DNA of 64,000 nucleotides from Candidatus Latescibacterota bacterium. GTDB taxonomy: Bacteria; Latescibacterota; UBA2968; UBA8231. The notes below the pieces were generated by a model. The model made no database searches and was not told the origin of the DNA. It worked only from the letters and a program-made list of their open reading frames with translations. The position numbers and the translations under genes are program-made. The first letter of the stretch is position 1, and each line of letters starts with the position of its first letter. Location of the stretch: assembly GCA_965218365.1 (NCBI GenBank), contig OZ244619.1:3715231-3779230 (forward strand), written 5' to 3'. Shown here piece by piece: positions 3,293 to 44,292 of this stretch.

Positions 3293-3554
3293 GGGTCCCG
3301 CCTCAACCCCAGTTCGAATTCCCAGCCTGCCTCCTCCGCGATGGGCACCGGTGAGCCCTACGGAGGAATGCGTCCTGAATGGTCTCAGCGAGGACCGGGT
3401 TGGACCCGATACGGGCTCACAGGCAACCCAACCCTACTGCGAGCCCTGTCAAACGGCCTGCCAACGATCCTCAGCGAGCTTCCCCTGCCCCTTGCGTGTG
3501 TGTTCGGCGCCTTGACAAGAGGGCCGAAAAGGGGCCTCATTTTTCCTATACTTG
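3293..3554 (+). mobile_element. IS91/ISCR-family element remnant, copy 1 (last ~10 codons of tnp plus ~230-bp conserved 3' end)
   Basis: Begins with ..PPQPQFEF-like codons and ends ...ggggcctcatttttcctatactt. It is about 90% identical to the 12 other copies. Confidence 0.8.
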
Positions 3555-18598: not shown

Positions 18599-19648
18599 AT
18601 GGCTACAGAGCAACTGTTCATCGTGAGCACACTGACGGATTCCGACGGAATCTTCATCTATCGCATAGCCGACGCAGACGGGCATCTCGAGTTGGTTCGA
18701 CAATACAAGGAGATCAGCAATCCGTTCTTTATCGACCTCCATCCGAACGGCAACGTCGTCTACAGCATTTCAGATCCAGACAACGAACAGATGGTGGAGG
18801 CTCTTGCCCTGGATCGTGCTACCGGTGAGCTGACCCCGATAAACAAACAACCGACCCAGGGGGGCTACCCCTGTTACGTCACGGTCGATCCAAGCGGGCG
18901 AATGGTGGTGGCGGCCAACTACAAAGGAGGCAGCGTCATATCTTACCCGCTCGAGGAGGACGGGGCGTTGGGTGCGGTGGGATCTTTCGTGCAGCACGTT
19001 GGCCACAGCGTCGAGCCGCGCCGCCAAATAGAACCCCACGCCCACTGTTTCAAGGTGGCGGCCGACGGCCGGTTTGCTTTTGCCGCCGACCTCGGCATGG
19101 ACAAGGTCATGATCTACGCCCTCGATCTCGAGGCTGGCAGCTTGAGTCCCGGCCAGCAACACTTCGCTCGCGTCCAACCAGGAGGCGGCCCCCGGCATTT
19201 CATCTTTTCACCGGATAGTCGGCACGGCTATGTCATCAACGAGATGGGGAACACAGTTACCTCGTTCGTTTACGACCGGAAACAAGGGTTGTTGTTGGAG
19301 CGGGACTCGGTGCCAACCCTGCCGGCGGATTTCGACGGCCACAGTGCTACAGCCGATCTGGCGTTCACCCCCGACGGACGTTTCCTCTACGGCACCAACC
19401 GGGGTCACGAAAGTCTCGCCATGTTCACGGTGGATATCCAAAGCGGTGCCCTGACTCCCAACGGAATCGAGCCGAGCCGGGGGGAGATGCCACAGAATAT
19501 CACCATCACCCCCGACGGGAAGCTGCTCTTTATAGCCAATACCAAAGGCAACAACCTGGTCGCCTTCCACATAGATCAGTCTTCGGGTAAGCTAAATTTC
19601 AGCTGTGAACTCGAGATGCCGGCACCGGTATGTGGTGTGCTTGGATGA
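18599..19648 (+). CDS. 7-bladed beta-propeller lactonase (6-phosphogluconolactonase / cis-carboxymuconate lactonizing-enzyme-like)
   Basis: MATEQLFIVSTLT..GIFIYRI....LELV......NPFFIDLHPNGNVVYS......VEALALD..TGELTPINKQPTQGGYPCYVTVDPSGRMVVAANYKGGSVISYPL is the typical Lactonase (PF10282) layout. The RBS is ggaggagaa. Confidence 0.65.
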   Translation: MATEQLFIVSTLTDSDGIFIYRIADADGHLELVRQYKEISNPFFIDLHPNGNVVYSISDPDNEQMVEALALDRATGELTPINKQPTQGGYPCYVTVDPSGRMVVAANYKGGSVISYPLEEDGALGAVGSFVQHVGHSVEPRRQIEPHAHCFKVAADGRFAFAADLGMDKVMIYALDLEAGSLSPGQQHFARVQPGGGPRHFIFSPDSRHGYVINEMGNTVTSFVYDRKQGLLLERDSVPTLPADFDGHSATADLAFTPDGRFLYGTNRGHESLAMFTVDIQSGALTPNGIEPSRGEMPQNITITPDGKLLFIANTKGNNLVAFHIDQSSGKLNFSCELEMPAPVCGVLG

Positions 19649-19661
19649 AGGAGATTACCTG

Positions 19662-21290
19662 ATGAATCAAGCAAGACGCGACGCCCGCTGGCGCAAACGA
19701 CGCATCATATACAACAACGACGGTGACGATGCTCTCTATGCCCGCGATGGCCTCGAACACGAACACGACGTCGCCGAGGCGCTGACCGTGCGCACCGCGG
19801 GCGAGCTCATAGACGATTTCCTGAGAGCCCGCAGCACCCCGCTCATCGGATCGCAGGTCGATAGCAACTGGTACGCCAGCTGCATGGCCGGCTTGACATT
19901 CTCCCACAACACCAAGCTTGGCGGGTTCTACGGCAAGGAGCTGCCACTTGAGCTGATCGAGAAATACGGTAAGGACCCCCTCGAGGTGCAGCTGGATTTC
20001 AGCCGGGAGAACGCGATGGAAGCGGTGTGGGCGTTGCGCATGAACGACGCCCACGACGCCTATCCCATGGGCTCCCGCCGGTGGACCTACGGATTGGCCC
20101 CATTCAAAGCGGAGCATCCCGAATGTTTGATGGGAGAAGACGGCGACTGGGAGAAGTACATCGGTGTCAACCAGAAAAATACCTGGACCAAGCTCGACTT
20201 CTCCCTACCAATCGTGCGAGACCACATCTTCGGCATCATTCAGGAGGTGGCCCAGAACTACGACGTCGACGCCATCGGCATGGAGTTCTTCAAGTACAAC
20301 CCATTCTTCCGCGAGTCCCACGAAGGCGAAGCGGCCACCCCCGAGCACGTCGAGATCATGACCGATCTCTTACGGCGGATCCGTAAGATGGCGGACGAAG
20401 AAGGGCAAAAGCGCGGCCGGCCGATTCTGCTGGCGGCGCATACACCCCCGGACCTTGCCTGGTCCCGGTTCATCGGTCTCGATCTGGAAACCTGGCTCGC
20501 CGAACAGCTGATCGACCAGCTGATGCCAGGCGGTTTGAGCGAGTCGGTCTATTGTGACTCGCACAGCGAGATGATCGAGCTGGGGCACCGCCACGATATT
20601 CCGGTCTACCCCTGCATGAGTTGGGGCTTCTGGACACGATGGGCCTATCTCGACCTGTCCGCGGGCAAGCACCGAACCGCTGCCTCGTACCTCGAGAACC
20701 TATACGGTGGGCAAACCGACCGCCTGGGGAAACCGTCCTATATCCTGACCTACAACGGCTGGAAGGACACCCATGCCGCCTGGCGCGGCGCCGCGATGAA
20801 TCTCCTCAATGACGGCGCCGACGGTTTGTACATCTTCAATCCCGCTCTGGGCGAACCGGAATGGTGGCAAGACATCGGTGAAGTAGCGACCATGGAGGGC
20901 AAAGACAAGCTGTTCGGTATGGATCGTTTTCCGGGCGCGAGGGGAAATGTGGATCAGGTGGAGCTGAAGCAGGGCGAGAAGGTGACGTTGAGCTTCCTGG
21001 TCGGCGAAGACCCATCTGCAGTTGACGCCCGGCTCCAGTTTCGCGCCCACCTGTGGGATCTCACTACAGACGACGAGGTCGTCGTTGAACTCAATGGGAA
21101 GCTATTGTCCACCCTTGAGGTCAACGACGCTTTCACCTCACCGGAAGAGGGACAATGGTTCGAGGGCGATCTTAGGGCCGATCACGTGGTGCGCGGGCAG
21201 AATTCGGTGGTACTGGTATTGAACAAGCGAGCCGGGTCCGTACAGAGACCGCTGCTGCTGAACACCATTCAGCTCGCGGTTCGGTATTAA
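19662..21290 (+). CDS. Conserved hypothetical protein (possible TIM-barrel glycoside-hydrolase-like), paralog of 42661..44292
   Basis: Over 543 aa it is about 60% identical to the ORF at 42661 (RRIIYNNDGDD...TPLIG[ST]QVDSNW[YF]ASCMAGLTFSH[NH]TKLGGFYGK...). No family is confidently recognised. Confidence 0.45.
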   Translation: MNQARRDARWRKRRIIYNNDGDDALYARDGLEHEHDVAEALTVRTAGELIDDFLRARSTPLIGSQVDSNWYASCMAGLTFSHNTKLGGFYGKELPLELIEKYGKDPLEVQLDFSRENAMEAVWALRMNDAHDAYPMGSRRWTYGLAPFKAEHPECLMGEDGDWEKYIGVNQKNTWTKLDFSLPIVRDHIFGIIQEVAQNYDVDAIGMEFFKYNPFFRESHEGEAATPEHVEIMTDLLRRIRKMADEEGQKRGRPILLAAHTPPDLAWSRFIGLDLETWLAEQLIDQLMPGGLSESVYCDSHSEMIELGHRHDIPVYPCMSWGFWTRWAYLDLSAGKHRTAASYLENLYGGQTDRLGKPSYILTYNGWKDTHAAWRGAAMNLLNDGADGLYIFNPALGEPEWWQDIGEVATMEGKDKLFGMDRFPGARGNVDQVELKQGEKVTLSFLVGEDPSAVDARLQFRAHLWDLTTDDEVVVELNGKLLSTLEVNDAFTSPEEGQWFEGDLRADHVVRGQNSVVLVLNKRAGSVQRPLLLNTIQLAVRY

Positions 21291-22563: not shown

Positions 22564-22942
22564 ACCTCAGTGCCTGCCCGGCCTGTGGCGGTCGCCTGCG
22601 GATCATCGCCGCCCTGACCGATCCAGCCTCGATCCGACGCTACCTGGTGGGCGTGGGGCTGCCGCCGAAAGCCCCGCCGAGGGCTCCGCCACAGCCCCAG
22701 TTCGAGTTCTCCGTCTGACCTCCTCCGCGATGGGCGCCGGTGAGCCCTTACGGAGAACATGCGTCCTGAATGGTCTCAGCGAGGACCGGGTTGGACCCAA
22801 TACGGGCCCACAGGCCACCCAACCCTACTGCGAGCCCTGTCAAACGACCTGTAAACGATCCTCAGCGAGCTTGCCCTGCCCCTTGTGTGTGTTCGGCGCC
22901 TTGACAAGAGGGCCGAAAAGGTGCCTCATTTTTCCTATACTT
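22564..22942 (+). mobile_element. IS91/ISCR-family element remnant, copy 7 (last ~45 codons of tnp plus subfamily A' tail)
   Basis: LSACPACGGRLRIIAALTDPASIRRYLVGVGLPPKAPPRAPPQPQFEFSV followed by the conserved tail. Confidence 0.8.
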
Positions 22943-22997
22943 TAGGTCACTTGAGTCGGACGGACGGGAAGAGGGGAGACCGGCCGGTGACGGTCGA

Positions 22998-23026
22998 TTG
23001 ACGAAATAACTGCACATATGTATATT
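22998..23026 (+). promoter_or_regulatory. Candidate sigma70-type promoter (TTGACG-17 nt-TATATT) upstream of the HD dNTPase operon
   Basis: Near-consensus hexamers with a 17-nt spacer in an AT-rich island directly 3' of copy 7. It would give a ~200-nt leader. Confidence 0.25.
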
Positions 23027-23228
23027 ATTTCAATAAAGCCGTGTCAACGGAAAAAATGGCAGCTTGGCAGTTTTGACGGAATCCCCGGCGTTGGATTTCC
23101 TTACGATGCTTTTGAAGAAACACAGGGGATCTCTCCACACCCTGGGCAACGGAAAATCTTGTCGCGATGGATACTGTTGCCGAGGTATTCGACTGCGTTG
23201 CGCAGAACGGTAGTCGATATGAAAGCTG

Positions 23229-24578
23229 ATGAACGATAAAGAGACGCAACGCATCCGCGATCCGGTCCATGGTCTTATCGTGTTCGGCGGCGGGAACGAC
23301 GCACACCAGAACGAGACGGACCGAATCGCGTGGCGTCTGCTCAACACCCGAGAATTCCAGAGGCTGCGCCGGATTCGTCAGTTGGGCTTCTCCGACCTGG
23401 TATATCCCGGCGCGACGCACAGCCGCCTGGCGCACGCCATCGGTGTCTACCACACCGCGCGCCGGCTCATCGAGGTGATTCGCCGACGGCAGGACGAAAC
23501 GCACGAGGACAAGGAACGCGAACGAGTCGTACTTTTGGCGGCGCTTCTTCACGACATCGGGCACGGGCCGTTCAGCCACGTCTTCGAGCACGCGCCCTAT
23601 GCCGCGAAACGCCATGAAGATTGGGGCGCGGAGATCGTCCAGGGCGAAACCGAGGTCAACCAAGTGTTGAGGGAAGTGGACGAAGTGTTGCCTGAGCACA
23701 TTGGAGCGCTGCTGAAAGAGGACACCCCCAAGGATTTCTACGCCACAGTTGTCTCCAGTCAGTTCGACGCCGACCGGCTCGATTACGTGCAGCGGGATCG
23801 CCTGATGACCGGAGTCGAGTTCGCGCATCTCGATTTTGACTGGCTGCTCGATTGCCTCGAGGTCGGAACGATCACTATTGATGATAGGGATGCACTGGTC
23901 GAAGAGCCTTGCCTGTATCTGAACTTCAAGGGTGTGCAGGTGGCCGAGGAGTACCTCCAAGCGCGCTTCCGCCTCTACACAATGGTCTACATGCACAAGA
24001 CCACGCGGGCCGCCGAGAAGATGCTCGACGCTCTGCTGAAGACAGTTGCGGAGGATTTTAGAAACTGCGAATTGGCGAGCCGGGATCCAGTTCTACGCTA
24101 CTTTACGTCTGAATCGCCGTCTTTGGATTCATATCTCGATCTCGACGATGCCGCGGTTTGGGCGACCTTGGCGGCCCTTGCCGAATCACCATCACACCCA
24201 CTGGTTTCGGATCTGGCACGTCGTCTGCGAGAGCGCCGTCTTTACAAATGTTTTGACATCGGTATACAGGACAGCTCGGGCGGCAATTTGTACACCCGCT
24301 TCAGGCGCAAACTGCGTGAAAGTCATACTGAGAAGTACAGCACTCTTTTTTTCGACGACGCGAAAGTCGCGCTTTATAAATGGTACGACTTTGCCGATTC
24401 TTCAGCGCTCAATAAGGTTCTGGTAAAAGTACGCGCCGAGGATCAAGAACCAAGGGACATTGCAGATGTATCGAACATCGTCCCTGCGCTTCGTGAAGAG
24501 GAGCGGATTCAGAGAGTTTACGCGCCAGACCAGAACCAGATAGATGAAGTCAGGCAGACAATGGAGGAGATCAGATGA
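23229..24578 (+). CDS. SAMHD1-like / dGTPase-like HD-domain dNTP triphosphohydrolase
   Basis: IRDPVHGLI...FQRLRRIRQLGFSDLVYPGATHSRLAHAIGVYHTARRL...LLAALLHDIGHGPFSHVFE...DADRLDYVQRD is closely collinear with the SAMHD1/Dgt-family HD core. Confidence 0.7.
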   Translation: MNDKETQRIRDPVHGLIVFGGGNDAHQNETDRIAWRLLNTREFQRLRRIRQLGFSDLVYPGATHSRLAHAIGVYHTARRLIEVIRRRQDETHEDKERERVVLLAALLHDIGHGPFSHVFEHAPYAAKRHEDWGAEIVQGETEVNQVLREVDEVLPEHIGALLKEDTPKDFYATVVSSQFDADRLDYVQRDRLMTGVEFAHLDFDWLLDCLEVGTITIDDRDALVEEPCLYLNFKGVQVAEEYLQARFRLYTMVYMHKTTRAAEKMLDALLKTVAEDFRNCELASRDPVLRYFTSESPSLDSYLDLDDAAVWATLAALAESPSHPLVSDLARRLRERRLYKCFDIGIQDSSGGNLYTRFRRKLRESHTEKYSTLFFDDAKVALYKWYDFADSSALNKVLVKVRAEDQEPRDIADVSNIVPALREEERIQRVYAPDQNQIDEVRQTMEEIR

Positions 24579-25114
24579 AGGCCGAAGAAATCGTGGTCAA
24601 CCTAATCATATTGAGTGGCGGCGAACTGACCGGGCGGACGCGGCTGCAGAAGGAGGCATATCTTTTGGACCGTTGCGGAGCAAAGTTCGGGTTGTCGTTT
24701 ACTTATTACTATTACGGTCCTTACTCCTTCGAGCTTGCCGATGGATGGGAGGACGCGCGGGCAGAAGGTCGGATTGAAATCGCCGAAGAGCCGGGCCGGT
24801 ACGGTGTCCCGTATTCGATCTTCAAACTGAAGAAACCCGGCGGCGCCCCGGACCGCCTGGGTAACATGTCGGTTGACGCTGCTCGCGCACGGCTGAACGA
24901 GATGGTGGGTGTTTCGGACATTGTTCTCGAGCTCGCTGCCACCATCGTTTATCTGAAGGAAGAAGGTTACGGCGAGCAGACCATCGAAGAATTGAAAATC
25001 CGCAAGCCTCTCAAGGCGACGGACCAGCTGATCGAAAAAGCCAAGAATCTGCTGGGCGGCCTCGGATTGTCGCCTGTAGGTGCCGAAGATTCTGCAGGAC
25101 CGCTTACCCACTGA
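24575..25114 (+). CDS. Small protein with Panacea (DUF4065/SocA-like antitoxin) domain-like N-terminus
   Basis: ATGA overlap with the HD gene. LTGRTRLQKEAYLLDRCGAKFGLSFTYYYYGPYSFEL follows the Panacea pattern (s.TKLqKLLYla....g.plf...f.aw.yGPv). The call is tentative. Confidence 0.4.
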   Translation: MKAEEIVVNLIILSGGELTGRTRLQKEAYLLDRCGAKFGLSFTYYYYGPYSFELADGWEDARAEGRIEIAEEPGRYGVPYSIFKLKKPGGAPDRLGNMSVDAARARLNEMVGVSDIVLELAATIVYLKEEGYGEQTIEELKIRKPLKATDQLIEKAKNLLGGLGLSPVGAEDSAGPLTH

Positions 25115-25335
25115 GAAAGAACTTCATCCGGCCGGCGAACCTCTCGGCATGACTGGACTGGAGAACTTCAACAATCCGACACCTGGGATCCGGATCGGCT
25201 CGGACGGCTGGGTCGCCATCCGGGGTCTCTATGGAGCCGCGCTGGAGTTCCAACATGCCTTCGCTGCAGGTGAGAAGAGGCGGCAAGTCACTGCTACTCA
25301 CGCCTTGAGTATCTCACGCGCCTGAAGCCGAACGG

Positions 25336-26160
25336 ATGATCCTTCCGCCTCTCCTTCATCTGGCCGCGGCCGCTTTTGCCGCCGCGTTGGCGGGGTGCAG
25401 CCACACCGCCCCGTACTACCGGGCCGACGTCGCCGGCGGGGCCGCCGGCCCGGCCCTGCCCGCAGAGGACCTCGCTTTCCGCGTGATCCTGATCGGCGAC
25501 GCCGGCGCCCCGGGTCCCCGGGAACCGGTGCTGGCCACCCTGAAGGCGTGGGCGCGCAGAGACCCGGACCGCACCCTGGTCGCCTTCCTGGGGGACAACG
25601 TCTACGAGGACGGCTTCTCGGGGGCGGACCGGCGCGACGAGGAGCGGCGCCTGGAGCGCCAGCTGGAGACCCTCGAGGGATTGCCCGGGCCGCGGGGGCT
25701 GTTCATCCCGGGCAACCACGACTGGGCCGGGGGTTCGGAAGCGGGGCTGGCGGCGCTGAAGGCGCAGCAGGAGTACGTCGAGGCCCGCCTGTCGCCGGGG
25801 AGCTTCCTGCCCCGGGACGGCCGCCCCGGACCGGTGAAGATCGACCTGCCGGATTCCGCTGGCGCCGTGCTGCGGCTCGTCGCCGCGCTCGTGCGCTGCC
25901 TGACGACGGATCTGCCGGTGGTCGTGCTCGCCCACCACCCGCTGGAGTCCGCCGGCAACCACGGCGGGTTCTTCGACTGGCGCGACTGCCTGTTTCCGGC
26001 GACCCGGGCCACCGATGCCCCGTGGGCCTGGCTGATCCCGGCGCCCCTGGTCTATCCGCTGGGGCGGAGGTTCACGCCGCTGGGGACCGGGCAGGACATC
26101 TTCGCGCCGGCCTACCGGCAGATGAAGGAAGATCGGGGACGAACTCCGGTTTTCGTAGCC
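25336..26160 (+). pseudogene. Calcineurin-like metallophosphoesterase lipoprotein, C-terminus replaced by an IS91-family tnp fragment (chimeric ORF continues to 26982)
   Basis: Signal peptide plus lipobox LAGC; phosphoesterase motifs ILIGDAG, GDNVYEDG, GNHDW, VLAHHP. From about 26150 the same ORF reads ..QRIVQTIAHRIIRLYTKRGLLDD..AASVRGIIATGERAGQRLRRAL.. and on into the Y2 transposase C-terminus. The junction is approximate. Confidence 0.5.
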
Positions 26161-37374: not shown

Positions 37375-38198
37375 GGCCACCGGGGTGCGTACGGCGCCTT
37401 TGTGCTTCGCTTCGAAGGGCTTTTCTCTGCATGCGGCGACGCGGATCGCAGGCCCTGACCGGCGGCGGCTCGAACGCTTATGCCGCTACGTGGCCCGACC
37501 GGCCCTGGCCGCCGGGCGCCTGCGCCTCCTCGATTCGGCACACCTTTCCTTCGCGCTCAAAACACCGTGGTCGGATGGGACCAGCCATCTCCTCCTCTCG
37601 CCGATGGAATTACTGGAAAAACTGGCGGTTCTGGTCCCCCCTCCCCGGCTCCATCTCCTGCGCTACCACGGGGTCCTGGCCCCACGGGCCCGAGACCGCC
37701 ACCGCATCGTGCCGGCGCAGCCGCTAGCCGAGTCGCCGGCGGCCAACCGCGCTTCGAGCGCTCCGCCCTGCGGCCATCGCCTGGGGTGGGCGGCCGTGCT
37801 CGCCCGCGTGTTTGCCACCGACCTCAGTGCCTGCCCGGCCGGTGGCGGTCGCCTGCGGATCATCGCCGCCCTGACCGATCCAGCCTCGATCCGACGCTAC
37901 CTGGTGGGCGTGGAGCTGCCGCCGAAAGCCCCGCCGAGGGCTCCGCCACAGCCCCAGTTCGAGTTCTCCGTCTGACCTCCTCCGCGATGGGCGCCGGTGA
38001 GCCCTTACGGAGAAATGCGTCCTGAATGGTCTCAGCGAGGACCGGGTTGGACCCGATCCGGGCCCACAGGCCACCCAACCCTACTGCGAGCCCTGTCAAA
38101 CGACCTGCAAACGATCCTCAGCGATCTTGCCCTGCCCCTTGCGTGTGTTCGGCGCCTTGACAAGAGGGCCGAAAAGGTGCCTCATTTTTCCTATACTT
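37375..38198 (+). mobile_element. IS91/ISCR-family element remnant, copy 11 (C-terminal ~190 codons of tnp plus 3' end); left bracket of the HEPN cassette
   Basis: Nearly identical to copy 9. Confidence 0.8.
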
Positions 38199-38395: not shown

Positions 38396-38821
38396 ATGAG
38401 TCTTTTGAAGCAACAGAACGGCGACGATTACCCTGAAGCTGCAAACAAGCATTTACAGGATGGGTACGTACTCCTGAAGGGCAACCGCTTCGATGGAACT
38501 GCTTATCTGGCCGGGTACGTGGCCGAGTGCGCAATAAAGACGCTGATTCAAGTAGAAACCGGATCAGGTTTTCGCTCTCACGAGCTTGTTGAATTGCAAA
38601 ATACCTTTGGTACACTTGCCGCACAGTTCGGTGCTCGTACTAGCCGGTTCTACAATCCATTGGCAGCGCAGCTAAAAAACTCCGAGGTTATCAAATGGAA
38701 CCCGGAAATGCGCTACCGCGGTCCTGCGATCACCGAAAACAGTGCCCGCGAGATGGTTCGGGAGGCAAACGAGATATATGGATTGGTAATCGGCGAACTC
38801 ATTCTGGACGGAGTGATCTGA
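38396..38821 (+). CDS. HEPN-domain protein (pfam05168-like; no Rx4-6H motif seen)
   Basis: MSLLKQQNGDDYPEAANKHLQDGYVLLKGNRFDGTAYLAGYVAECAIKTLI..GSGFRSHELVELQNTF...EMRYRG..ENSAREMVREANEIYG matches the HEPN pattern LL..G.Y..A...AYYA.E.ALKALL......SH.L..L...F....R..Y...A.E....A.E. The RBS is ggagcgagg. The stop overlaps the next start. Confidence 0.5.
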   Translation: MSLLKQQNGDDYPEAANKHLQDGYVLLKGNRFDGTAYLAGYVAECAIKTLIQVETGSGFRSHELVELQNTFGTLAAQFGARTSRFYNPLAAQLKNSEVIKWNPEMRYRGPAITENSAREMVREANEIYGLVIGELILDGVI

Positions 38822-40146
38822 TGCAACACTTGGACGATGCCTACCGACAGGCAGAAAAAATTCTAGCGGGATTTCTAGAAGACAAGTCAGTAAACTGGCG
38901 CATCCTTTTGATTAAAGATGTCTTTGCCAAGCTACGTATCGTCCTTTGGTGTCCCAAAAAAAGTAGGGAATCCGGCCGCGAAGAAATCAATCAAAGCCTT
39001 CGTCAGGTCTCATCGCCCTACTGGTCAGAAAACGTGTTGTTCGGGCAGAAAAAGGATGAACCGCCCAATGGCCCTTGGCAAGATGCTGCTTGGCGTAAAG
39101 CACAAGATGTCGAGGGAGTGAATGGTCTTCGGGTCTTGGAGCGACACCGAGCCAAGACGGGTTGGTTTGAATCCCCCGACGAGCCGCCATGGACCCTCAA
39201 AAAAAACACTGGAGTTCCTATTTGCCTCTTCTATTCGTTTAAAGGGGGCGTAGGTCGGTCGATGGCCCTCGCGGCGACTGCGTTGCATCTGGCTACTGCC
39301 GGTGATCGAGTTGTCGTGCTAGATGCGGATCTTGATGCACCCGGAGTAGGTTCCTTACTCGCGGGATACGACAGCGCGACTGCCCCGTGGGGCATTGTGG
39401 ACTATCTACTCGAGTACCCCATCTTGGCCGAAAATGGAGGACTGGATATCGGAGATTACTATCACCTCTGTCCGTCCGAACTCGTGCCTGGGCAAGGAGA
39501 AATTCTCGTATTTCCGGTGGGGGTTTTCGATGATCGGTATCTTAACAAGCTCGCACGGCTCGACTACGGAGTTCCACCGGATCATCCAGAACATCCCTTC
39601 GTTTCACTTCTGAAACAGATTGGCCGAGACCTCGCACCAGATTGGATTCTGGTTGATGCCCGTGCTGGACTGGGCGATGTGTCGGGGTTCTTAACTGGAG
39701 GTTTGTGTCACCTTCATGTGTTGTTCGGCACACTGGCAGACGCGAGTTGGCAGGGTATGAAGCAGATCGTAGATCGGCTCGGGGGCACTCGGGTACGGGA
39801 AGGCAAGCCCCAAGCTGAGTGCCTAGTAGCAGCGGCGATGATACCGCGATCTCAAGAGGCCCAGTATCAAGAATCCGTGGAATGGTTCACGGATCAAGCA
39901 CGCGATGTGTTCTCCAATTACTATTACGCAGAAGCAGGACACCAAGACAAATTTTGGACGATGGACGACATGGAGAACACCGATGCCCCGCATGTCCCTA
40001 TCGTACTGCCCTACGACGAACGCCTTGCTCTTTTCCGAAATCTGAGCGAAGTCAATTCCATCCTGCTTACTCCGAACGGGCCTTATGGAGAGCTTGCTGA
40101 GCATCTGAAAGCTGGCTCCCGTCGATTGAAGGAGACAACTAAATGA
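38821..40146 (+). CDS. ParA/MinD-like deviant-Walker-A ATPase with unique ~170-aa N-terminal domain (Walker A KGGVGRS, with Arg in place of the P-loop Lys)
   Basis: ICLFYSFKGGVGRSMALAATALHLATAGDRVVVLDADLDAPG is the KGGxG[KR]S P-loop plus DxD. The Walker B candidate is WILVDARAGLGD. The TGATG overlap with the HEPN gene and the ATGA overlap with the next gene indicate translational coupling. Confidence 0.5.
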   Translation: MQHLDDAYRQAEKILAGFLEDKSVNWRILLIKDVFAKLRIVLWCPKKSRESGREEINQSLRQVSSPYWSENVLFGQKKDEPPNGPWQDAAWRKAQDVEGVNGLRVLERHRAKTGWFESPDEPPWTLKKNTGVPICLFYSFKGGVGRSMALAATALHLATAGDRVVVLDADLDAPGVGSLLAGYDSATAPWGIVDYLLEYPILAENGGLDIGDYYHLCPSELVPGQGEILVFPVGVFDDRYLNKLARLDYGVPPDHPEHPFVSLLKQIGRDLAPDWILVDARAGLGDVSGFLTGGLCHLHVLFGTLADASWQGMKQIVDRLGGTRVREGKPQAECLVAAAMIPRSQEAQYQESVEWFTDQARDVFSNYYYAEAGHQDKFWTMDDMENTDAPHVPIVLPYDERLALFRNLSEVNSILLTPNGPYGELAEHLKAGSRRLKETTK

Positions 40147-41651
40147 ACAACACATCGAGACTCACTAAAGAGCGGTGTACTGACCTGCGTGGTCAGCTCA
40201 GCGATCTTGGCTATGGGCAGGCTGAATCGGAAACGTCGGAACTCTTCTCACACAGACTTTATCTCGTCCCGGAACATCTACGAGCACTTGATCCGCGTGT
40301 CGTACTGGTCGTCGGTCCCCGCGGTGCAGGGAAGAGCGCGTTATTCAGAGCCATCTTCTTAGGGATGGATCTCGGCGATGCGATCATTCGTCGCGTACCA
40401 CAAATCGCAAGCACCGCTATGCAGTTTGACTCTACGACTTGGAAGGCCGCCTTTCCTGAAGGCACTAGTTTTCCCGACACTCAAGCCCTTGAGCGACACA
40501 TCAATTCGGACGAGCAGGCGAAGCGCATTTGGTATCTGATGCTCGTCCGGTGTCTGACGTGCGAGTTCGACGACGCCCAAAAAGCAAGCTTGCGGCCCCT
40601 GACCGAGCCAAGAGCTGCAGAAATCGACAAAATACTCGCTGCTGCTAACTCACTGGAAGCCAATCCTACAGCGGTTCTGGACGCACTGGAAGAGCGACTC
40701 GAACGCGAAGGACGCTGGGTTTTTGTCGGCTACGATGAGCTTGATACGTTAGGAGGTTTCAATTGGACATTGATGGCACGAATGGTGCGCGGGCTTGTCG
40801 CTTTCTGGTCTGACTACAGTAGACGTTGGCGACGGATTCGGGCAAAGATATTCCTCCGCTCCGATCTTTTTCGCCGACACGCAGGCATGGGTACCGCAGA
40901 CTTTGCAAAGCTTGCTGCCAATCGCGCCATACTTGGCTGGTCTGACGCAGCAATACTCGGAATGCTGGTGAAGCGCATCGCCAACACATCTGACGAATTA
41001 GAGTCCTACTGTCAAGGGGCAAGGGTTACGTTTGAAAAGGATGATACGCTCGGGTTGGTTCCCAATATACAAGCGCCTGATGTTGCCCACCCATTGCTGG
41101 AGCGGATGGTAGGCGAGTACATGGGCTCCGACAAGAAGAAGGGGTTTGTCCGCAATTGGATACTTGCCCATCTACGAGATGGAAACGGCGATCTCTGCCC
41201 GCGTACGCTCGTGCGACTGGTAGAGATCGCCGCCGCGAATAACTCGGCGAACCGAACTCTGCGCCCGCCGCGGCTGATCCATCCCACAGCACTACGCCAA
41301 GCCCTCAATGACGTGTCAAGCGACCATGTAACCCAAGGAATTAGCAGCGAATGGCCATGGTTGGAGGGGGTTAAAAGGCGACTGAAACAACAGCAGCTTG
41401 TGCCGTGGCAGAGTAGTGAGATTGTGAATCTGCTCAACTCGGACTGGGATGAAACTTGGGGACTACCAAGTAGCACTCCCGTGCGACCGCCCGAGGAAAG
41501 GCCGGCGGATCTCGTTAATTATCTCGTCGAGCTTGGTATTTTCCGGAGACGCTCCGATGGGCGGGTTGATGTGCCTGACCTGTATCTGTTTGGCCTAGAA
41601 CTCCGTCGCAAAGGCGGCGTTAAGGTAGGTGCTCGTCGCCAAAGAAGCTGA
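40143..41651 (+). CDS. AAA+/STAND-like P-loop NTPase (502 aa)
   Basis: ..HRLYLVPEHLRALDPRVVLVVGPRGAGKSALF (Walker A GPRGAGKS) and RWVFVGYDELDTL (Walker B hhhhDE). The sensor-2-like segment is PRTLVRLVEIAAANN. The C-terminus is unrecognised. Confidence 0.45.
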   Translation: MNNTSRLTKERCTDLRGQLSDLGYGQAESETSELFSHRLYLVPEHLRALDPRVVLVVGPRGAGKSALFRAIFLGMDLGDAIIRRVPQIASTAMQFDSTTWKAAFPEGTSFPDTQALERHINSDEQAKRIWYLMLVRCLTCEFDDAQKASLRPLTEPRAAEIDKILAAANSLEANPTAVLDALEERLEREGRWVFVGYDELDTLGGFNWTLMARMVRGLVAFWSDYSRRWRRIRAKIFLRSDLFRRHAGMGTADFAKLAANRAILGWSDAAILGMLVKRIANTSDELESYCQGARVTFEKDDTLGLVPNIQAPDVAHPLLERMVGEYMGSDKKKGFVRNWILAHLRDGNGDLCPRTLVRLVEIAAANNSANRTLRPPRLIHPTALRQALNDVSSDHVTQGISSEWPWLEGVKRRLKQQQLVPWQSSEIVNLLNSDWDETWGLPSSTPVRPPEERPADLVNYLVELGIFRRRSDGRVDVPDLYLFGLELRRKGGVKVGARRQRS

Positions 41652-42660: not shown

Positions 42661-44292
42661 GTGAATGCAGACCATATGAAGGCGCGCTGGCGGCAACGCC
42701 GGATCATTTACAACAACGACGGCGACGATGTAATCGAAGCACGCTCCGGAGTGGAACATGAGTATGACGTCTCCGCAGCCACGACGGTACGCGCCACCGG
42801 AGATCTGGTACAAGATTTTCTCGATGCCCGCAGCACGCCTCTGATCGGCACCCAGGTGGACAGCAACTGGTTCGCCAGCTGCATGGCGGGCCTCACCTTT
42901 TCACACCATACGAAGTTGGGCGGATTCTACGGCAAGGGGATCCCGCTGGAGCTGGTGGAGAAATACGGGCGCGACAGTTTGCAGGTACAGCTGGATTTCA
43001 GCCACGAGCACGGCATGGAAGCAGCTTGGTGCCTGCGCATGAACGATGTCCACGACGCGTTCCCCATGGGTTCGCGTCCATGGACCTACGGTCTGGCCAA
43101 GTTCAAGCGAGACCATCCGCAATGCTTGATGGGCAAGGAGGGCGATTGGGAGAAATACGGCCAGCACGACCCGCGGTCTGGATGGACGCGATTGGATTTC
43201 GCTGTTCCAGAGGCGCGCGAGCACATCTTCGGCATCATTCAGGAGGTGGCGCAGAACTACGACGTGGACTGTATCGGCATGGAGTTCTTCAAGTACTGGC
43301 CCTTCTTCCGTGAGTCGCTGGAGGGCAATCCCGTCGAACCGGAGCATCTGGAGTTGATGAACGATTTTTTGCGGCGCATCCGGCACATGGCGGACGAGCA
43401 GGCCAACCGCCGCGGCCGCCCACTGCTGCTGGCGGCGCATACCCCGTTCAGCCTCGCCGATTCGATCCACGTGGGGGGCGACCTGGAAACGTGGCTGAAG
43501 GAAGGATTGATCGATCAGCTCATGCCCGGCGGCAACTACGAATCGGTTTTCTGCAGTTCCTACAGCGACATCATCGCACTGGGACACAAGTACGAGGTTC
43601 CGGTCTATCCCTGCGTGTCCTGGGGCTTCTGGGATCGCTGGGCCTTTCTCGGACTTACCGATGGCAAATACAGACAGTTCGGGTCGTGGTTAGAGACCCT
43701 CTACGGAGCTCAGCCCGAGCGCGTCGGCAGACCGTCGTTTATTCTGGTGTTCAACAGCTGGGAGGGCACAATGGCCGCGTGGCGGGGAGCCGCCTCGAAT
43801 CTGTTCAATTCCGGCGCCGATGGGCTCTACCTCTTCAATCCCCAGTTCGGGGAGCCGCAATGGTGGCGCGAGATCGGCGAACCGGCAACCATGGCCGGCA
43901 AAGACAAGCTCTACGGCATCGAGCGTTTTACAGGCCCCGACAGCTTTACCGAAACTCCGGAGGTTACCCTCCCCGTGTCCGCGGGTTTTCAGGTGGGCGA
44001 GGAGGTCGGATCCGCCGGTGCGCGCAGCATCGATTTCAGCCTGCATCTGTGGGATTGGGCTCCCGGCGACGACCTCTCGGTGAAACTCAACGGCGCGGCG
44101 GTCGAGGGGCTAAATCCGGTCGATCCGGACCGCAACCCCAAGGAAGGTCAGTGGCTGCGGGGCACGCTCGATGCCAGACAGATCCGTCGCGGTGAGAATC
44201 AGCTGGACGTGGCGGTTAAGAACCGCGGCGAGTCCGCTTCGTCTGCGGTCGTGCTTGACGCAGCGCAGCTGCGGGTTCGTGCGAAGGAGTAG
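42661..44292 (+). CDS. Conserved hypothetical protein, paralog of 19662..21290
   Basis: See 19662..21290. Full length and intact. Confidence 0.45.
   Translation: MNADHMKARWRQRRIIYNNDGDDVIEARSGVEHEYDVSAATTVRATGDLVQDFLDARSTPLIGTQVDSNWFASCMAGLTFSHHTKLGGFYGKGIPLELVEKYGRDSLQVQLDFSHEHGMEAAWCLRMNDVHDAFPMGSRPWTYGLAKFKRDHPQCLMGKEGDWEKYGQHDPRSGWTRLDFAVPEAREHIFGIIQEVAQNYDVDCIGMEFFKYWPFFRESLEGNPVEPEHLELMNDFLRRIRHMADEQANRRGRPLLLAAHTPFSLADSIHVGGDLETWLKEGLIDQLMPGGNYESVFCSSYSDIIALGHKYEVPVYPCVSWGFWDRWAFLGLTDGKYRQFGSWLETLYGAQPERVGRPSFILVFNSWEGTMAAWRGAASNLFNSGADGLYLFNPQFGEPQWWREIGEPATMAGKDKLYGIERFTGPDSFTETPEVTLPVSAGFQVGEEVGSAGARSIDFSLHLWDWAPGDDLSVKLNGAAVEGLNPVDPDRNPKEGQWLRGTLDARQIRRGENQLDVAVKNRGESASSAVVLDAAQLRVRAKE

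Follow-up and report, generated by a model that had tools for sequence, protein, structure and literature searches.

Nucleotide depletion is an antiviral strategy common to humans, through SAMHD1, and to bacteria, and the depletion of dNTPs in particular is established in this role. SAMHD1 and its relative EF1143, the biochemically characterised chromosomal dNTPase of Enterococcus faecalis, are regulated by nucleotides that bind to the enzyme itself, and to our knowledge neither has been described with a dedicated partner protein. A single-gene form of dGTPase defence in bacteria was reportedly described by Tal and colleagues in 2022. How cells protect themselves from their own dNTPases is only starting to be understood, and the first worked example is the Clover system (2025), in which the dNTPase CloA, strongly toxic without its partner gene, is restrained by the nucleotidyltransferase CloB via the small-molecule signal p3diT (Yamaguchi et al. 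2025 preprint, PMC12265719). Restraint by direct binding has been established experimentally for the DarT-DarG pair, where DarG's C-terminal domain by itself binds DarT and eliminates its toxicity (PMC7003065).

Here we describe a two-gene module from a Candidatus Latescibacterota bacterium that joins a predicted dNTPase of the SAMHD1/EF1143 branch to a small protein which, judged by its sequence profile and fold, is a relative of the DarG C-terminal domain. We compare the locus with the systems above and weigh what the pair is likely to do.

Results

Organisation of the locus

The window, that is, the whole stretch of DNA analysed, comprises 64,000 nucleotides of contig OZ244619.1 (positions 3,715,231 to 3,779,230), and the features of the locus, numbered from the first letter of the window, are as follows.

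22709..22942, + strand: 3' tail copy of an IS91-family element (Y2_Tnp), abutting the module; context, not a part of it
22943..23228, + strand: conserved region ahead of the HD gene, containing a promoter-like site (22998-23026) and a leader of ~200 nt
23229..24578, + strand: HD gene, 449 aa; homologue of dNTP triphosphohydrolases of the EF1143/SAMHD1 branch; proposed effector/toxin
24563..24578, + strand: coupling junction, a GGAGGAG ribosome-binding site inside the HD gene plus an ATGA stop/start overlap, read from the sequence
24575..25114, + strand: small gene, 179 aa; DarG-C-terminal-domain-like, 'YwgA' in JGI annotation; proposed neutralising partner
25336..26134, + strand: metallophosphoesterase remnant, calcineurin-like, truncated by an IS91-family fragment; context

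Both open reading frames lie where a preliminary description of this DNA had placed them, and the translational coupling that it proposed is borne out by the junction, in which the GGAGGAG site (24563-24569) stands ahead of the ATGA (24575-24578) where the stop codon of the HD gene overlaps the start codon of the small gene. The AT-rich pocket noted in the same description is also real, GC content being 0.54-0.57 at the pair vs. 0.62-0.70 in the flanks, and the pair does begin just 3' of an IS tail, the IS91-family copy that ends at 22942. This tail is a member of a 12-copy direct repeat family (D1) whose sister copies carry Y2_Tnp domains. We rejected it as a part of the module, given that none of the 70 related loci has it and that homology to the closest relative, locus L001, begins at 22943, right behind the tail. 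The region from there to 23228 is 87% identical to the sequence that precedes the pair in L001 and L054, and it contains the motif TTGACG-17-TATATT (22998-23026), which matches at 10 of 12 positions. A near-consensus sigma70-type site therefore exists as previously reported, but with 0.8 such sites expected by chance in the region it does not, on its own, exceed chance. A search of the ~200-nt leader for a riboswitch or other RNA element gave no Rfam match.

On the other side, the native neighbour of the window pair is the metallophosphoesterase gene, and the earlier claim that an IS copy had broken it is correct: a Metallophos domain (residues 48-215) is followed in the same ORF by a Y2_Tnp fragment (residues 352-454). 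Synteny with L001, to which the window locus is ~90% identical at the nucleotide level, ends at 26134. The phosphoesterase neighbours the pair in L001 and L054 only and was rejected as a third component. The pair in the window stands alone between IS91-family fragments, with no restriction-modification (RM) or other recognisable defence gene nearby.

The HD protein is a predicted dNTP triphosphohydrolase

By sequence, the HD protein is a homologue of SAMHD1/EF1143-type dNTP triphosphohydrolases, and the collinearity with this family claimed in the preliminary description was confirmed. It aligns with EF1143 (PDB 2o6i) at E 2.5e-49, residues 32-435 against 53-447, with full-length collinearity that includes the C-terminal region, and Pfam recognises both an HD domain (1e-12) and HD_assoc_2 (7e-14); the match to SAMHD1 (~1e-19) covers the N-terminal part only. 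R66, H69, H108-D109, H112, H117, H129-E130, D182, Y186 and D190 are invariant in 15 homologues, and the H...HD...D metal ligands (H69, H108-D109, D182) and the H-E dyad (H129-E130) are all intact in the window protein. Following our mapping to SAMHD1 numbering, we take R66, Y186 and D190 to be substrate-binding residues and H129-E130 to be the catalytic dyad. In Clover, the HD motif and the HE dyad are both needed for dNTP hydrolysis (PMC12265719), and we predict that the present enzyme hydrolyses dNTPs as well.

Assignment to the Dgt-type dGTPases was rejected, as the protein falls below every NCBIfam Dgt cut-off (best model TIGR01353, 39 bits vs. 152). The NCBIfam model for anti-phage dGTPases gave 23.5 bits against a cut-off of 400, PADLOC v2.0.0 returned a dGTPase match at 3.7e-8 and weak Cas3 HD models but no others, and SpdGTPase (PDB 9p8w) was matched at 7.8e-6. 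An HD protein 100% identical to that of the window was also encountered among the sequences collected (P0179).

The partner resembles DarG's C-terminal domain

The preliminary description had likened the N-terminus of the small protein to the Panacea domain (DUF4065, SocA/PanA) and had named an hmmscan with PF13274 as the check, a missing Panacea match or a match to a different family counting against the idea. This is what we found. PF13274 gave no match to the window protein at E<=1, nor to six distant members of its family at E<=10, while the positive control, PanA of phage phi52237, scored 65.8 bits (gathering score 25.7 bits), and with the model silent on all seven members we rejected Panacea membership at the family level. 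The N-terminal motif LQK..Y..(n)..F.Y..YGP is nevertheless real in the small protein and aligns with the Panacea motif, albeit with weak statistics: when the small-family profile was aligned by hhalign to one PanA sequence the result was E 0.048, and 127 family members against 13 Panacea proteins gave P 0.0043, a score of 25.5 over 140 collinear columns and a probability of 7.9%, compared with 14.5 for the reversed control and at most 22.9 for 30 block shuffles. In a comparison of folds, Foldseek against viral proteins yielded no match below 1e-3.

By sequence profile and by fold, the small protein is instead best described as a stand-alone homologue of the C-terminal, DarT-binding domain of DarG, which is its closest relative by a wide margin and also its sole characterised one. 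The fold combines a winged helix with a helical bundle, the N-terminal half being a generic winged helix of the MarR/PadR kind. The protein carries no Macro domain and aligns solely to the C-terminal half of DarG models, with the NCBIfam DarG model reaching 19.6 bits vs. a cut-off of 250. In PADLOC v2.0.0 it has weak DarG and PDC-M19A matches and no others, and this catalogue holds no single system whose models match both proteins of the pair. A Bacillota member of the small family matches LmuC models (3.5e-6) and, below cut-off, Pfam MC2 (4.7e-5). No nucleotidyltransferase match was found in Pfam or NCBIfam. Since its pI is just 5.1, the protein is mildly acidic and shows no sign of the nucleic-acid mimicry proposed for DarG, and we rejected a role as such a mimic. 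Several family members are named 'YwgA' by JGI, after Bacillus subtilis YwgA, and clusters at 50% identity include ~740 representatives of this family at E<=1e-10.

Loss of the Panacea label strengthens rather than weakens the functional idea behind it, because the DarG C-terminal domain has been shown to bind and neutralise its toxin. The suggestion of a partner of the antitoxin type survives in this altered form, resting now on an antitoxin-type fold of the DarG C-terminal kind.

The two genes are inherited as a coupled unit

With search patterns that were narrow, we found 70 small-gene loci in 185,579 species genomes. In 67 of the 70 the gene immediately upstream encodes an HD homologue, and in essentially all of them it is the HD gene or its remnant. 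Seen from the other gene, each of the 73 HD loci that leave space for it (73 of 73) has the small gene immediately downstream, at HD identities of 34-68%, and its full length is covered except where the contig runs out. Across more than 140 independent loci the pair is found with its gene order and shared strand unchanged, and it reaches as far as Bacillota (L069, L070). Such recurrence is far beyond chance, and the conservation elsewhere on which the preliminary description had made its proposal depend is evident.

Seventy of 106 intact pairs share the -4 nt (ATGA-type) overlap, and nearly all others are spaced within 20 nt. The distance matrices of the two proteins, compared by the mirror-tree method, are correlated with r 0.93 vs. 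a permutation maximum of 0.11. The HD-small pair is obligate across the sampled clade, and its genes, adjacent, co-directional and coupled, are inherited as a unit in the manner of type II-like toxin-antitoxin pairs. Co-inheritance and coupling would also fit an activating or scaffolding subunit.

The HD gene decays while its partner persists

Beside an intact small gene, the HD gene is deleted, interrupted, frameshifted, stopped or absent in 17 of the 70 loci, a count in which some frameshifts may be assembly errors. Both genes are broken in one locus of the 70, and a broken small gene next to an intact HD gene was seen in none. Were decay simply proportional to gene length, the chance of 17 out of 17 cases falling on the HD side would be 0.714^17, or ~0.003, keeping in mind that the asymmetry is partly open to ascertainment bias, as genome loci were found via the small gene and metagenome loci via intact HD motifs. 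With this caveat on ascertainment, the toxin-like gene decays and its partner persists, never the reverse, as is the case in type II-like toxin-antitoxin pairs.

Some related pairs sit inside type I restriction-modification operons

At least 15 genome loci, spread over several phyla, have the pair within a type I RM operon, and remnants of this arrangement occur in three more; RM genes are the commonest flanking families in the related loci. The operon in L072 and L073 reads hsdR-hsdM-HD-small-hsdS, followed by vsr and dcm. HsdR and HsdM of the embedding operons are 70-92% identical across Acidobacteriota, Alpha- and Gammaproteobacteria, and the HD proteins 62-65% across phyla, which together indicate horizontal transfer. 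Most flanking sequence is unrelated from one locus to the next, 286 of the 395 flank ORFs being singletons, and two genomes have two copies each (L021 and L053; L025 and L040). We looked for the pair on phage, viral or plasmid records and found none there. Embedding of this sort is a validated guide to defence genes ('guilt by embedding'), and an anti-phage context of this kind, with the pair set within a known defence system, is present at the related loci, not at the window copy. Metabolic neighbours, found at many related loci, count against the defence reading, as do the missing defence neighbours of the window copy and the negative outcome on phage, viral and plasmid records.

Comparison with described systems

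DarTG2 of EPEC (E. coli) lies within a type I RM system, as related copies of the present pair do, and the slots are comparable, DarTG2 sitting between hsdS and hsdR and the HD-small pair between hsdM and hsdS. The small protein shares with the DarG C-terminal domain (7yk3) the motifs QK..Y.., YGPYS and EL.A..HW, and in both systems the toxin-type gene comes first and the partner second, darT preceding darG. Unlike DarG, the small protein has no macrodomain (ADP-ribosyl glycohydrolase), so that no enzymatic reversal of damage is to be expected of it, and there is no DarT beside its gene; in the window and in the more than 140 loci that place is taken by an HD phosphohydrolase (449 aa in the window) rather than an ADP-ribosyltransferase.

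The resemblance to Clover lies in the two-gene operon and, on the side of the HD pair as a prediction, in a dNTPase effector restrained by the product of the adjacent gene (CloA being toxic alone), with a balance struck between defence and self-toxicity. CloB, however, is a Pol-beta-type nucleotidyltransferase, whereas the partner described here lacks such a domain and, we predict, works through protein-protein binding; the two enzymes also differ in that CloA belongs to the Dgt/SpdGTPase-like branch and the HD protein, with its weak match to 9p8w, to that of EF1143/SAMHD1. With EF1143 and SAMHD1 themselves the HD protein has in common the HD fold, the catalytic residues, the C-terminal associated region and the predicted chemistry, but in contrast to them its gene has an obligatory partner across the whole sampled clade. 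As in the PanA/SocA systems, a small protein with the LQK..Y ... YGP motif is encoded beside a much larger, unrelated toxin-type gene; Panacea partners are promiscuous, whereas the small family was seen with the HD gene alone. Lastly, PrrC and other genes embedded in type I RM systems are likewise inserted between hsd genes and move with the operon between phyla, which suggests a second line of defence backing up restriction. PrrC is an anticodon nuclease kept in check by the RM enzyme itself, whereas the HD module comes with a partner of its own and, as in the window, is also found where RM genes are lacking.

Discussion

On balance, and with confidence only a little above even, we favour the interpretation that the pair is a toxin-antitoxin-like module, most likely serving anti-phage defence, in which the partner restrains a toxic dNTPase. 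The interpretation draws on the observed homologies, catalytic residues, obligate pairing and coupling, one-sided decay and RM-operon embedding. The HD enzyme would hydrolyse dNTPs and, if unrestrained, would starve DNA replication, whether the cell's or an infecting phage's. The small protein would be made by coupled translation from the same mRNA and, by analogy with DarG sequestering DarT, would bind the HD enzyme directly and keep it inactive, so that both the physical contact and its inhibitory direction are modelled on that system. Infection, or loss of the partner, may then free the enzyme, and protection from phage would presumably follow.

A rather unlikely explanation, in our estimate, is that the HD protein is a housekeeping enzyme of the dNTP pool and its partner an ordinary subunit, allosteric or regulatory. 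The pair would then be the counterpart of B. subtilis ywfO-ywgA (two genes that we take, from the order of gene naming, to be adjacent) and would tune or clean the pool for replication, with no role in conflict. The 'YwgA' names, the presence of the pair in Bacillota and the metabolic neighbours at many loci are consistent with it, as is EF1143, a chromosomal dNTPase from a branch (EF1143/YwfO) that includes enzymes regarded as housekeeping; moreover, YwfO co-evolves with PolC in Firmicutes, and a YwfO homologue is kept in the minimal genome discussed in PMC4993169. Against this stand the HD gene, dead or missing in 17 of 70 loci, the occurrence of just 70 loci among all the species genomes searched (though with narrow patterns), the signs of horizontal transfer in the HD and RM-embedded Hsd proteins, the variable flanks and the duplicate copies in some genomes, as well as the fact that the sole characterised relative of the partner is an antitoxin domain.

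We give somewhat less credence still to the possibility that the small protein acts positively, as an adaptor or sensor similar to the LmuC/MC2 middle components of Lamassu and ABC-3C, which would recruit, assemble or activate an HD enzyme that is inert alone, perhaps after its winged helix has recognised phage DNA or protein. The LmuC and MC2 matches of the Bacillota member and the MarR/PadR-kind N-terminal half are in keeping with this, and obligate pairing and co-evolution suit any tight complex. If the HD gene were inert and harmless without an activator, however, it should sometimes occur without one, which was seen in 0 of 73 and 0 of 70 loci, and the partner persists intact beside dead HD genes in 17; in addition, the closest relative of the partner is a sequestering inhibitor, and dNTPase effectors are known from Clover to need restraint. 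Least probable of all, we think, is that the substrate of the HD enzyme is not dNTPs but, for instance, nucleic acid, NTPs or a signalling nucleotide, in which case the effect of the module would not be dNTP depletion. The HD superfamily is chemically diverse, and the protein scores far below the NCBIfam dGTPase cut-offs and matches defence dGTPases (PADLOC, SpdGTPase) only weakly, but its similarity to the characterised dNTPase EF1143 extends over the full length, C-terminal region included, and the SAMHD1-type catalytic residues, which in our mapping include the H-E dyad, are invariant.

Returning to the favoured interpretation of a restrained toxic dNTPase, it leads to a broader proposal that we advance more tentatively, at slightly under an even chance: that the DarG C-terminal domain, rather than being confined to DarTG, is a portable module for restraining toxins, a stand-alone version of which has been recruited to restrain a SAMHD1-like dNTPase. 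The result would be a new toxin-antitoxin or defence class whose poison is dNTP starvation, one that spreads between phyla alone or as cargo of type I RM systems and could fire when restriction fails. The preliminary description regarded a dNTPase restrained by a partner as undescribed. This holds in part: in the literature that we searched on YwgA, YwfO and dNTPases with toxin-antitoxin systems, no description of the HD-small pairing and no protein partner of the DarG-C-terminal type was found, but the logic of restraint as such has its precedent in Clover (PMC12265719).

If our interpretation is true, the pair would represent a second and mechanistically different solution to the problem of self-protection from dNTPases, namely a dedicated inhibitory protein taken over from an antitoxin. 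It would also add a new class of toxin to those controlled by the DarG-type antitoxin fold and assign a role to the uncharacterised proteins of the 'YwgA' family, and it would provide a compact two-gene system, together with a natural five-gene RM version, in which the layering of restriction and abortive or starvation defences may be studied.

Organization and surroundings of the gene pair

The unit comprises two open reading frames:

23229-24578, + strand: HD gene, ORF of 449 aa
24575-25114, + strand: small gene, ORF of 179 aa, on the same strand as the HD gene

As the preliminary description had it, both ORFs lie at these coordinates, and the stop codon of the HD gene and the start codon of the small gene overlap in the sequence ATGA; a GGAGGAG ribosome-binding site is located inside the HD gene, 5 nt 5' of the small-gene start. 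The AT-rich pocket proposed for the pair proved to be a region of somewhat lower GC (0.54-0.57 vs. 0.62-0.70 in the flanks), and the proposed promoter (22998-23026) is present as TTGACG-17-TATATT, although one such match is the chance expectation for the stretch. No Rfam family matched the 200-nt leader or either gene.

The closest relative of the pair, locus L001 in a Latescibacterota MAG, is syntenic with the window over 22943-26134 at 90-95% nucleotide identity, a stretch containing the pair and a metallophosphoesterase gene. The limits of this syntenic stretch coincide exactly with an IS91-family tail whose last position is 22942, i.e. the pair does lie 3' of an IS tail, and with an IS91-family fragment that truncates the phosphoesterase gene, a disruption also recognized earlier. 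The pair was not found in the phage, viral and plasmid records searched.

The window carries 12 direct, same-orientation 3' tails of the IS91 family (Y2_Tnp) within 42 kb (3318-44869), starting at 3318, 4732, 9876, 11932, 14325, 22709, 26972, 29081, 32965, 37965, 41823 and 44636. Some copies include longer transposase-gene fragments, and 3' of several lie lower-GC stretches with unrelated cargo (SAM methyltransferases, unknown ORFs, an enolase-superfamily gene, P-loop ATPases). In layout the copies recall a cassette array or what repeated rounds of one-ended rolling-circle transposition would leave behind. One low-GC pocket, directly after the tail at 37965-38198, holds genes of 483 and 502 aa (38695-41651) with a 4-nt overlap and weak P-loop/AAA_16 matches; they are candidates for a further mobile or defence-type pair. 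Elsewhere, two stretches 22,999 nt apart (19683-20936 and 42682-43935) are 72-77% identical and fall, respectively, within long ORFs at 19605-21290, with a weak GHL10 glycosyl-hydrolase-like match, and 42661-44292, which look like diverged paralogues.

The HD protein belongs to the EF1143/SAMHD1 branch

Pfam detected an HD domain (1e-12) together with PF19276, an HD-associated region (7e-14). Among solved structures the best match was the characterised dNTP triphosphohydrolase EF1143 of Enterococcus faecalis (2o6i), with an E-value of 2.5e-49 over residues 32-435, followed by SAMHD1 entries (~1e-19, N-terminal part only); the Shewanella defence dGTPase (9p8w) reached only 7.8e-6. Every NCBIfam Dgt model scored far under its cut-off, and a Dgt-type identity was rejected. 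Aligning 15 homologues (62-85% identity) showed R66, H69, H108-D109, H112, H117, H129-E130, D182, Y186 and D190 to be invariant; by SAMHD1 numbering we take these residues to be metal ligands, the His-Glu dyad and substrate contacts. Judged by sequence, we conclude that the protein is an intact enzyme of this branch and not a Dgt-type dGTPase, so that its earlier description as a SAMHD1-type HD dNTPase holds, with dNTPase activity predicted.

The small protein resembles the DarG C-terminal domain

The partner had been described as Panacea-like at its N-terminus. No Pfam family matched it at E<=1, and PF13274 found no match in six distant family members even at E<=10, while PanA of Burkholderia phage phi52237 scored 65.8 bits as a positive control. 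The protein instead matches the C-terminal half of DarG (NCBIfam 4e-4; PADLOC 6e-6), and distant relatives match the PADLOC model at 3e-12 to 5e-9 over positions 165-320 of 329. The sole PDB sequence matched by the family profile was 7yk3_B (8.7e-4), the DarG C-terminal domain from the M. tuberculosis DarT-DarG complex, which shares with the family the motifs QK..Y..F..YGPYS and EL.A..HW. The AlphaFold model, a winged helix followed by a four-helix bundle (pLDDT 89, pTM 0.86), likewise retrieved 7yk3_B/D as top Foldseek matches over its whole length (probability 1.0, TM 0.63-0.65).

Membership of PF13274 is thus not upheld, but the shared motif is real: hhalign placed LQKEAYLL...FTYYYYGPYS against IQKLAYF...FEAWRFGPV of Panacea. 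Profile-profile comparison of 127 family sequences with 13 phage Panacea proteins gave 140 collinear columns (P 0.0043, probability only 8%) and a score of 25.5; the reversed control reached 14.5, and none of 30 block shuffles exceeded 22.9. On these alignments a remote common origin is possible. Because a Bacillota member also shows some similarity to the LmuC and MC2 models, the fold probably belongs to a broader set of winged-helix adaptors in conflict systems. The family numbers 107, 741 and 3088 representatives (50%-identity clusters) at E<=1e-30, 1e-10 and 1e-3; nearly all of the best 150 are stand-alone proteins of ~165-180 aa, and JGI labels several members 'uncharacterized protein YwgA'. 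A Panacea-like gene was also noted in Cylindrospermopsis phage Cr-LKS4 (record 88205-88663), annotated between two CRISPR arrays.

Conservation and one-sided decay

The arrangement proved conserved when approached from either gene. A single scan across 185,579 species genomes with the small gene yielded 70 loci in Latescibacterota, Acidobacteriota, Spirochaetia, Alpha- and Gammaproteobacteria, Rhodothermales, Chloroflexota and Bacillota, and 67 of these have an HD homologue that ends at the small-gene start. Conversely, scanning metagenomes for the HD gene gave 80 loci (HD identity 34-68%). Every one of the 73 with room for the small gene has it immediately 3' of the HD gene in the same orientation, so that none has a partnerless HD gene, and in the other seven the contig ends before it could lie there. 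The stop and start codons are spaced by -4 nt in 70 of 106 intact pairs and by at most ~20 nt in nearly all others, and the distance matrices of the two proteins correlate across these pairs with r 0.93 (permutation maximum 0.11).

Seventeen of the 70 genome loci combine a damaged HD gene with an intact small ORF (L001, L002, L003, L012, L013, L016, L021, L022, L023, L025, L030, L035, L036, L037, L043, L062 and L065); the lesion is a deletion, an N-terminal truncation, an interrupting insertion of 1-1.3 kb, a frameshift, a stop codon or loss of the whole HD gene. The reverse was seen in none of the 70, and both genes are damaged in L054. If damage were proportional to length (HD share 0.714), the probability of 17/17 would be ~0.003, or ~0.009 with a conservative 14 independent events. 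Genome loci were found via the small gene and metagenome loci via intact HD motifs, and isolated frameshifts could reflect errors of assembly; with these caveats, the one-sided damage is what one would predict for an HD enzyme that does harm when its partner is missing.

Both closest relatives of the window pair are damaged, leaving the window copy as the lineage's intact one: in L001 (4657-5998) the HD gene is frameshifted at residue 252, and in L054 (5063-8088) it carries a deletion and the small gene, with a stop codon, is split by ~1.5 kb. In L025 (3317-5962) a single 881-aa ORF joins hsdM to the HD gene minus its first ~70 residues, which reflects either gene decay or a naturally occurring fusion.

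Association with type I restriction-modification operons

Flanks are mostly unrelated, 286 of 395 flank ORFs having no counterpart in any other locus; the recurrent neighbours are type I restriction-modification (RM) genes. The pair is embedded in a type I RM operon in 15 genome loci, with remnants in three more, and L072 and L073 hold the complete operon hsdR-hsdM-HD-small-hsdS, then vsr and dcm, and a PIN gene lies close by. Embedded copies occur in L015, L019, L024, L025, L027, L035, L039-L042, L044, L047, L050, L052, L063, L072 and L073; vsr often lies 3' of the operon, and dcm is also present in L072, L073 and L050. Across Acidobacteriota (Bryobacterales), Alpha- and Gammaproteobacteria, HsdR and HsdM of these loci, mostly MAGs apparently from one sequencing project, are 70-92% identical; the whole five-gene block therefore moves horizontally, and the sequences indicate recent inter-phylum transfer of the operon. 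The window copy is unlike the embedded ones: its syntenic stretch comprises the pair and a metallophosphoesterase gene, and RM genes are absent from its vicinity. PADLOC v2 matched neither protein to a catalogued system as such.

Discussion

A toxin-antitoxin-like module is the best-supported reading of the pair. The HD enzyme would lower dNTPs, and the coupled partner would bind and silence it, as the homologous DarG domain does DarT; the isolated DarG C-terminal domain binds DarT and renders it non-toxic (PMC7003065). The HD enzyme would be freed on infection or when the partner is lost, and the module would protect against phage. Embedding is a validated predictor of defence genes, and the pair resembles DarTG2 of enteropathogenic E. 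coli, itself embedded in a type I system (PMC12255303), in that both sit within type I RM.

The HD protein could conversely be a housekeeping enzyme of the dNTP pool and the small protein its regulatory subunit, the counterpart of B. subtilis YwfO-YwgA, which we consider unlikely, or the partner could activate or scaffold the enzyme in the manner of LmuC/MC2, which seems slightly less likely still. Frequent loss of the HD gene, horizontal spread, RM embedding and the lack of partnerless HD genes argue against both. That the enzyme acts on a substrate other than dNTPs is the least probable of these alternatives.

The toxin-antitoxin-like logic has a precedent in the recently described Clover system, whose defence dNTPase can be lethal when the neighbouring gene's product is missing (PMC12265719); Clover imposes restraint through an enzymatically made nucleotide, whereas here the restraint would be a protein. 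The arrangement had been presented as undescribed, and while this precedent qualifies the claim for a restrained dNTPase, a SAMHD1-branch dNTPase paired with a stand-alone DarG-C-terminal-type protein was not found in the literature searched. The components are of known kinds, and the pair is directly testable as a two-gene construct.
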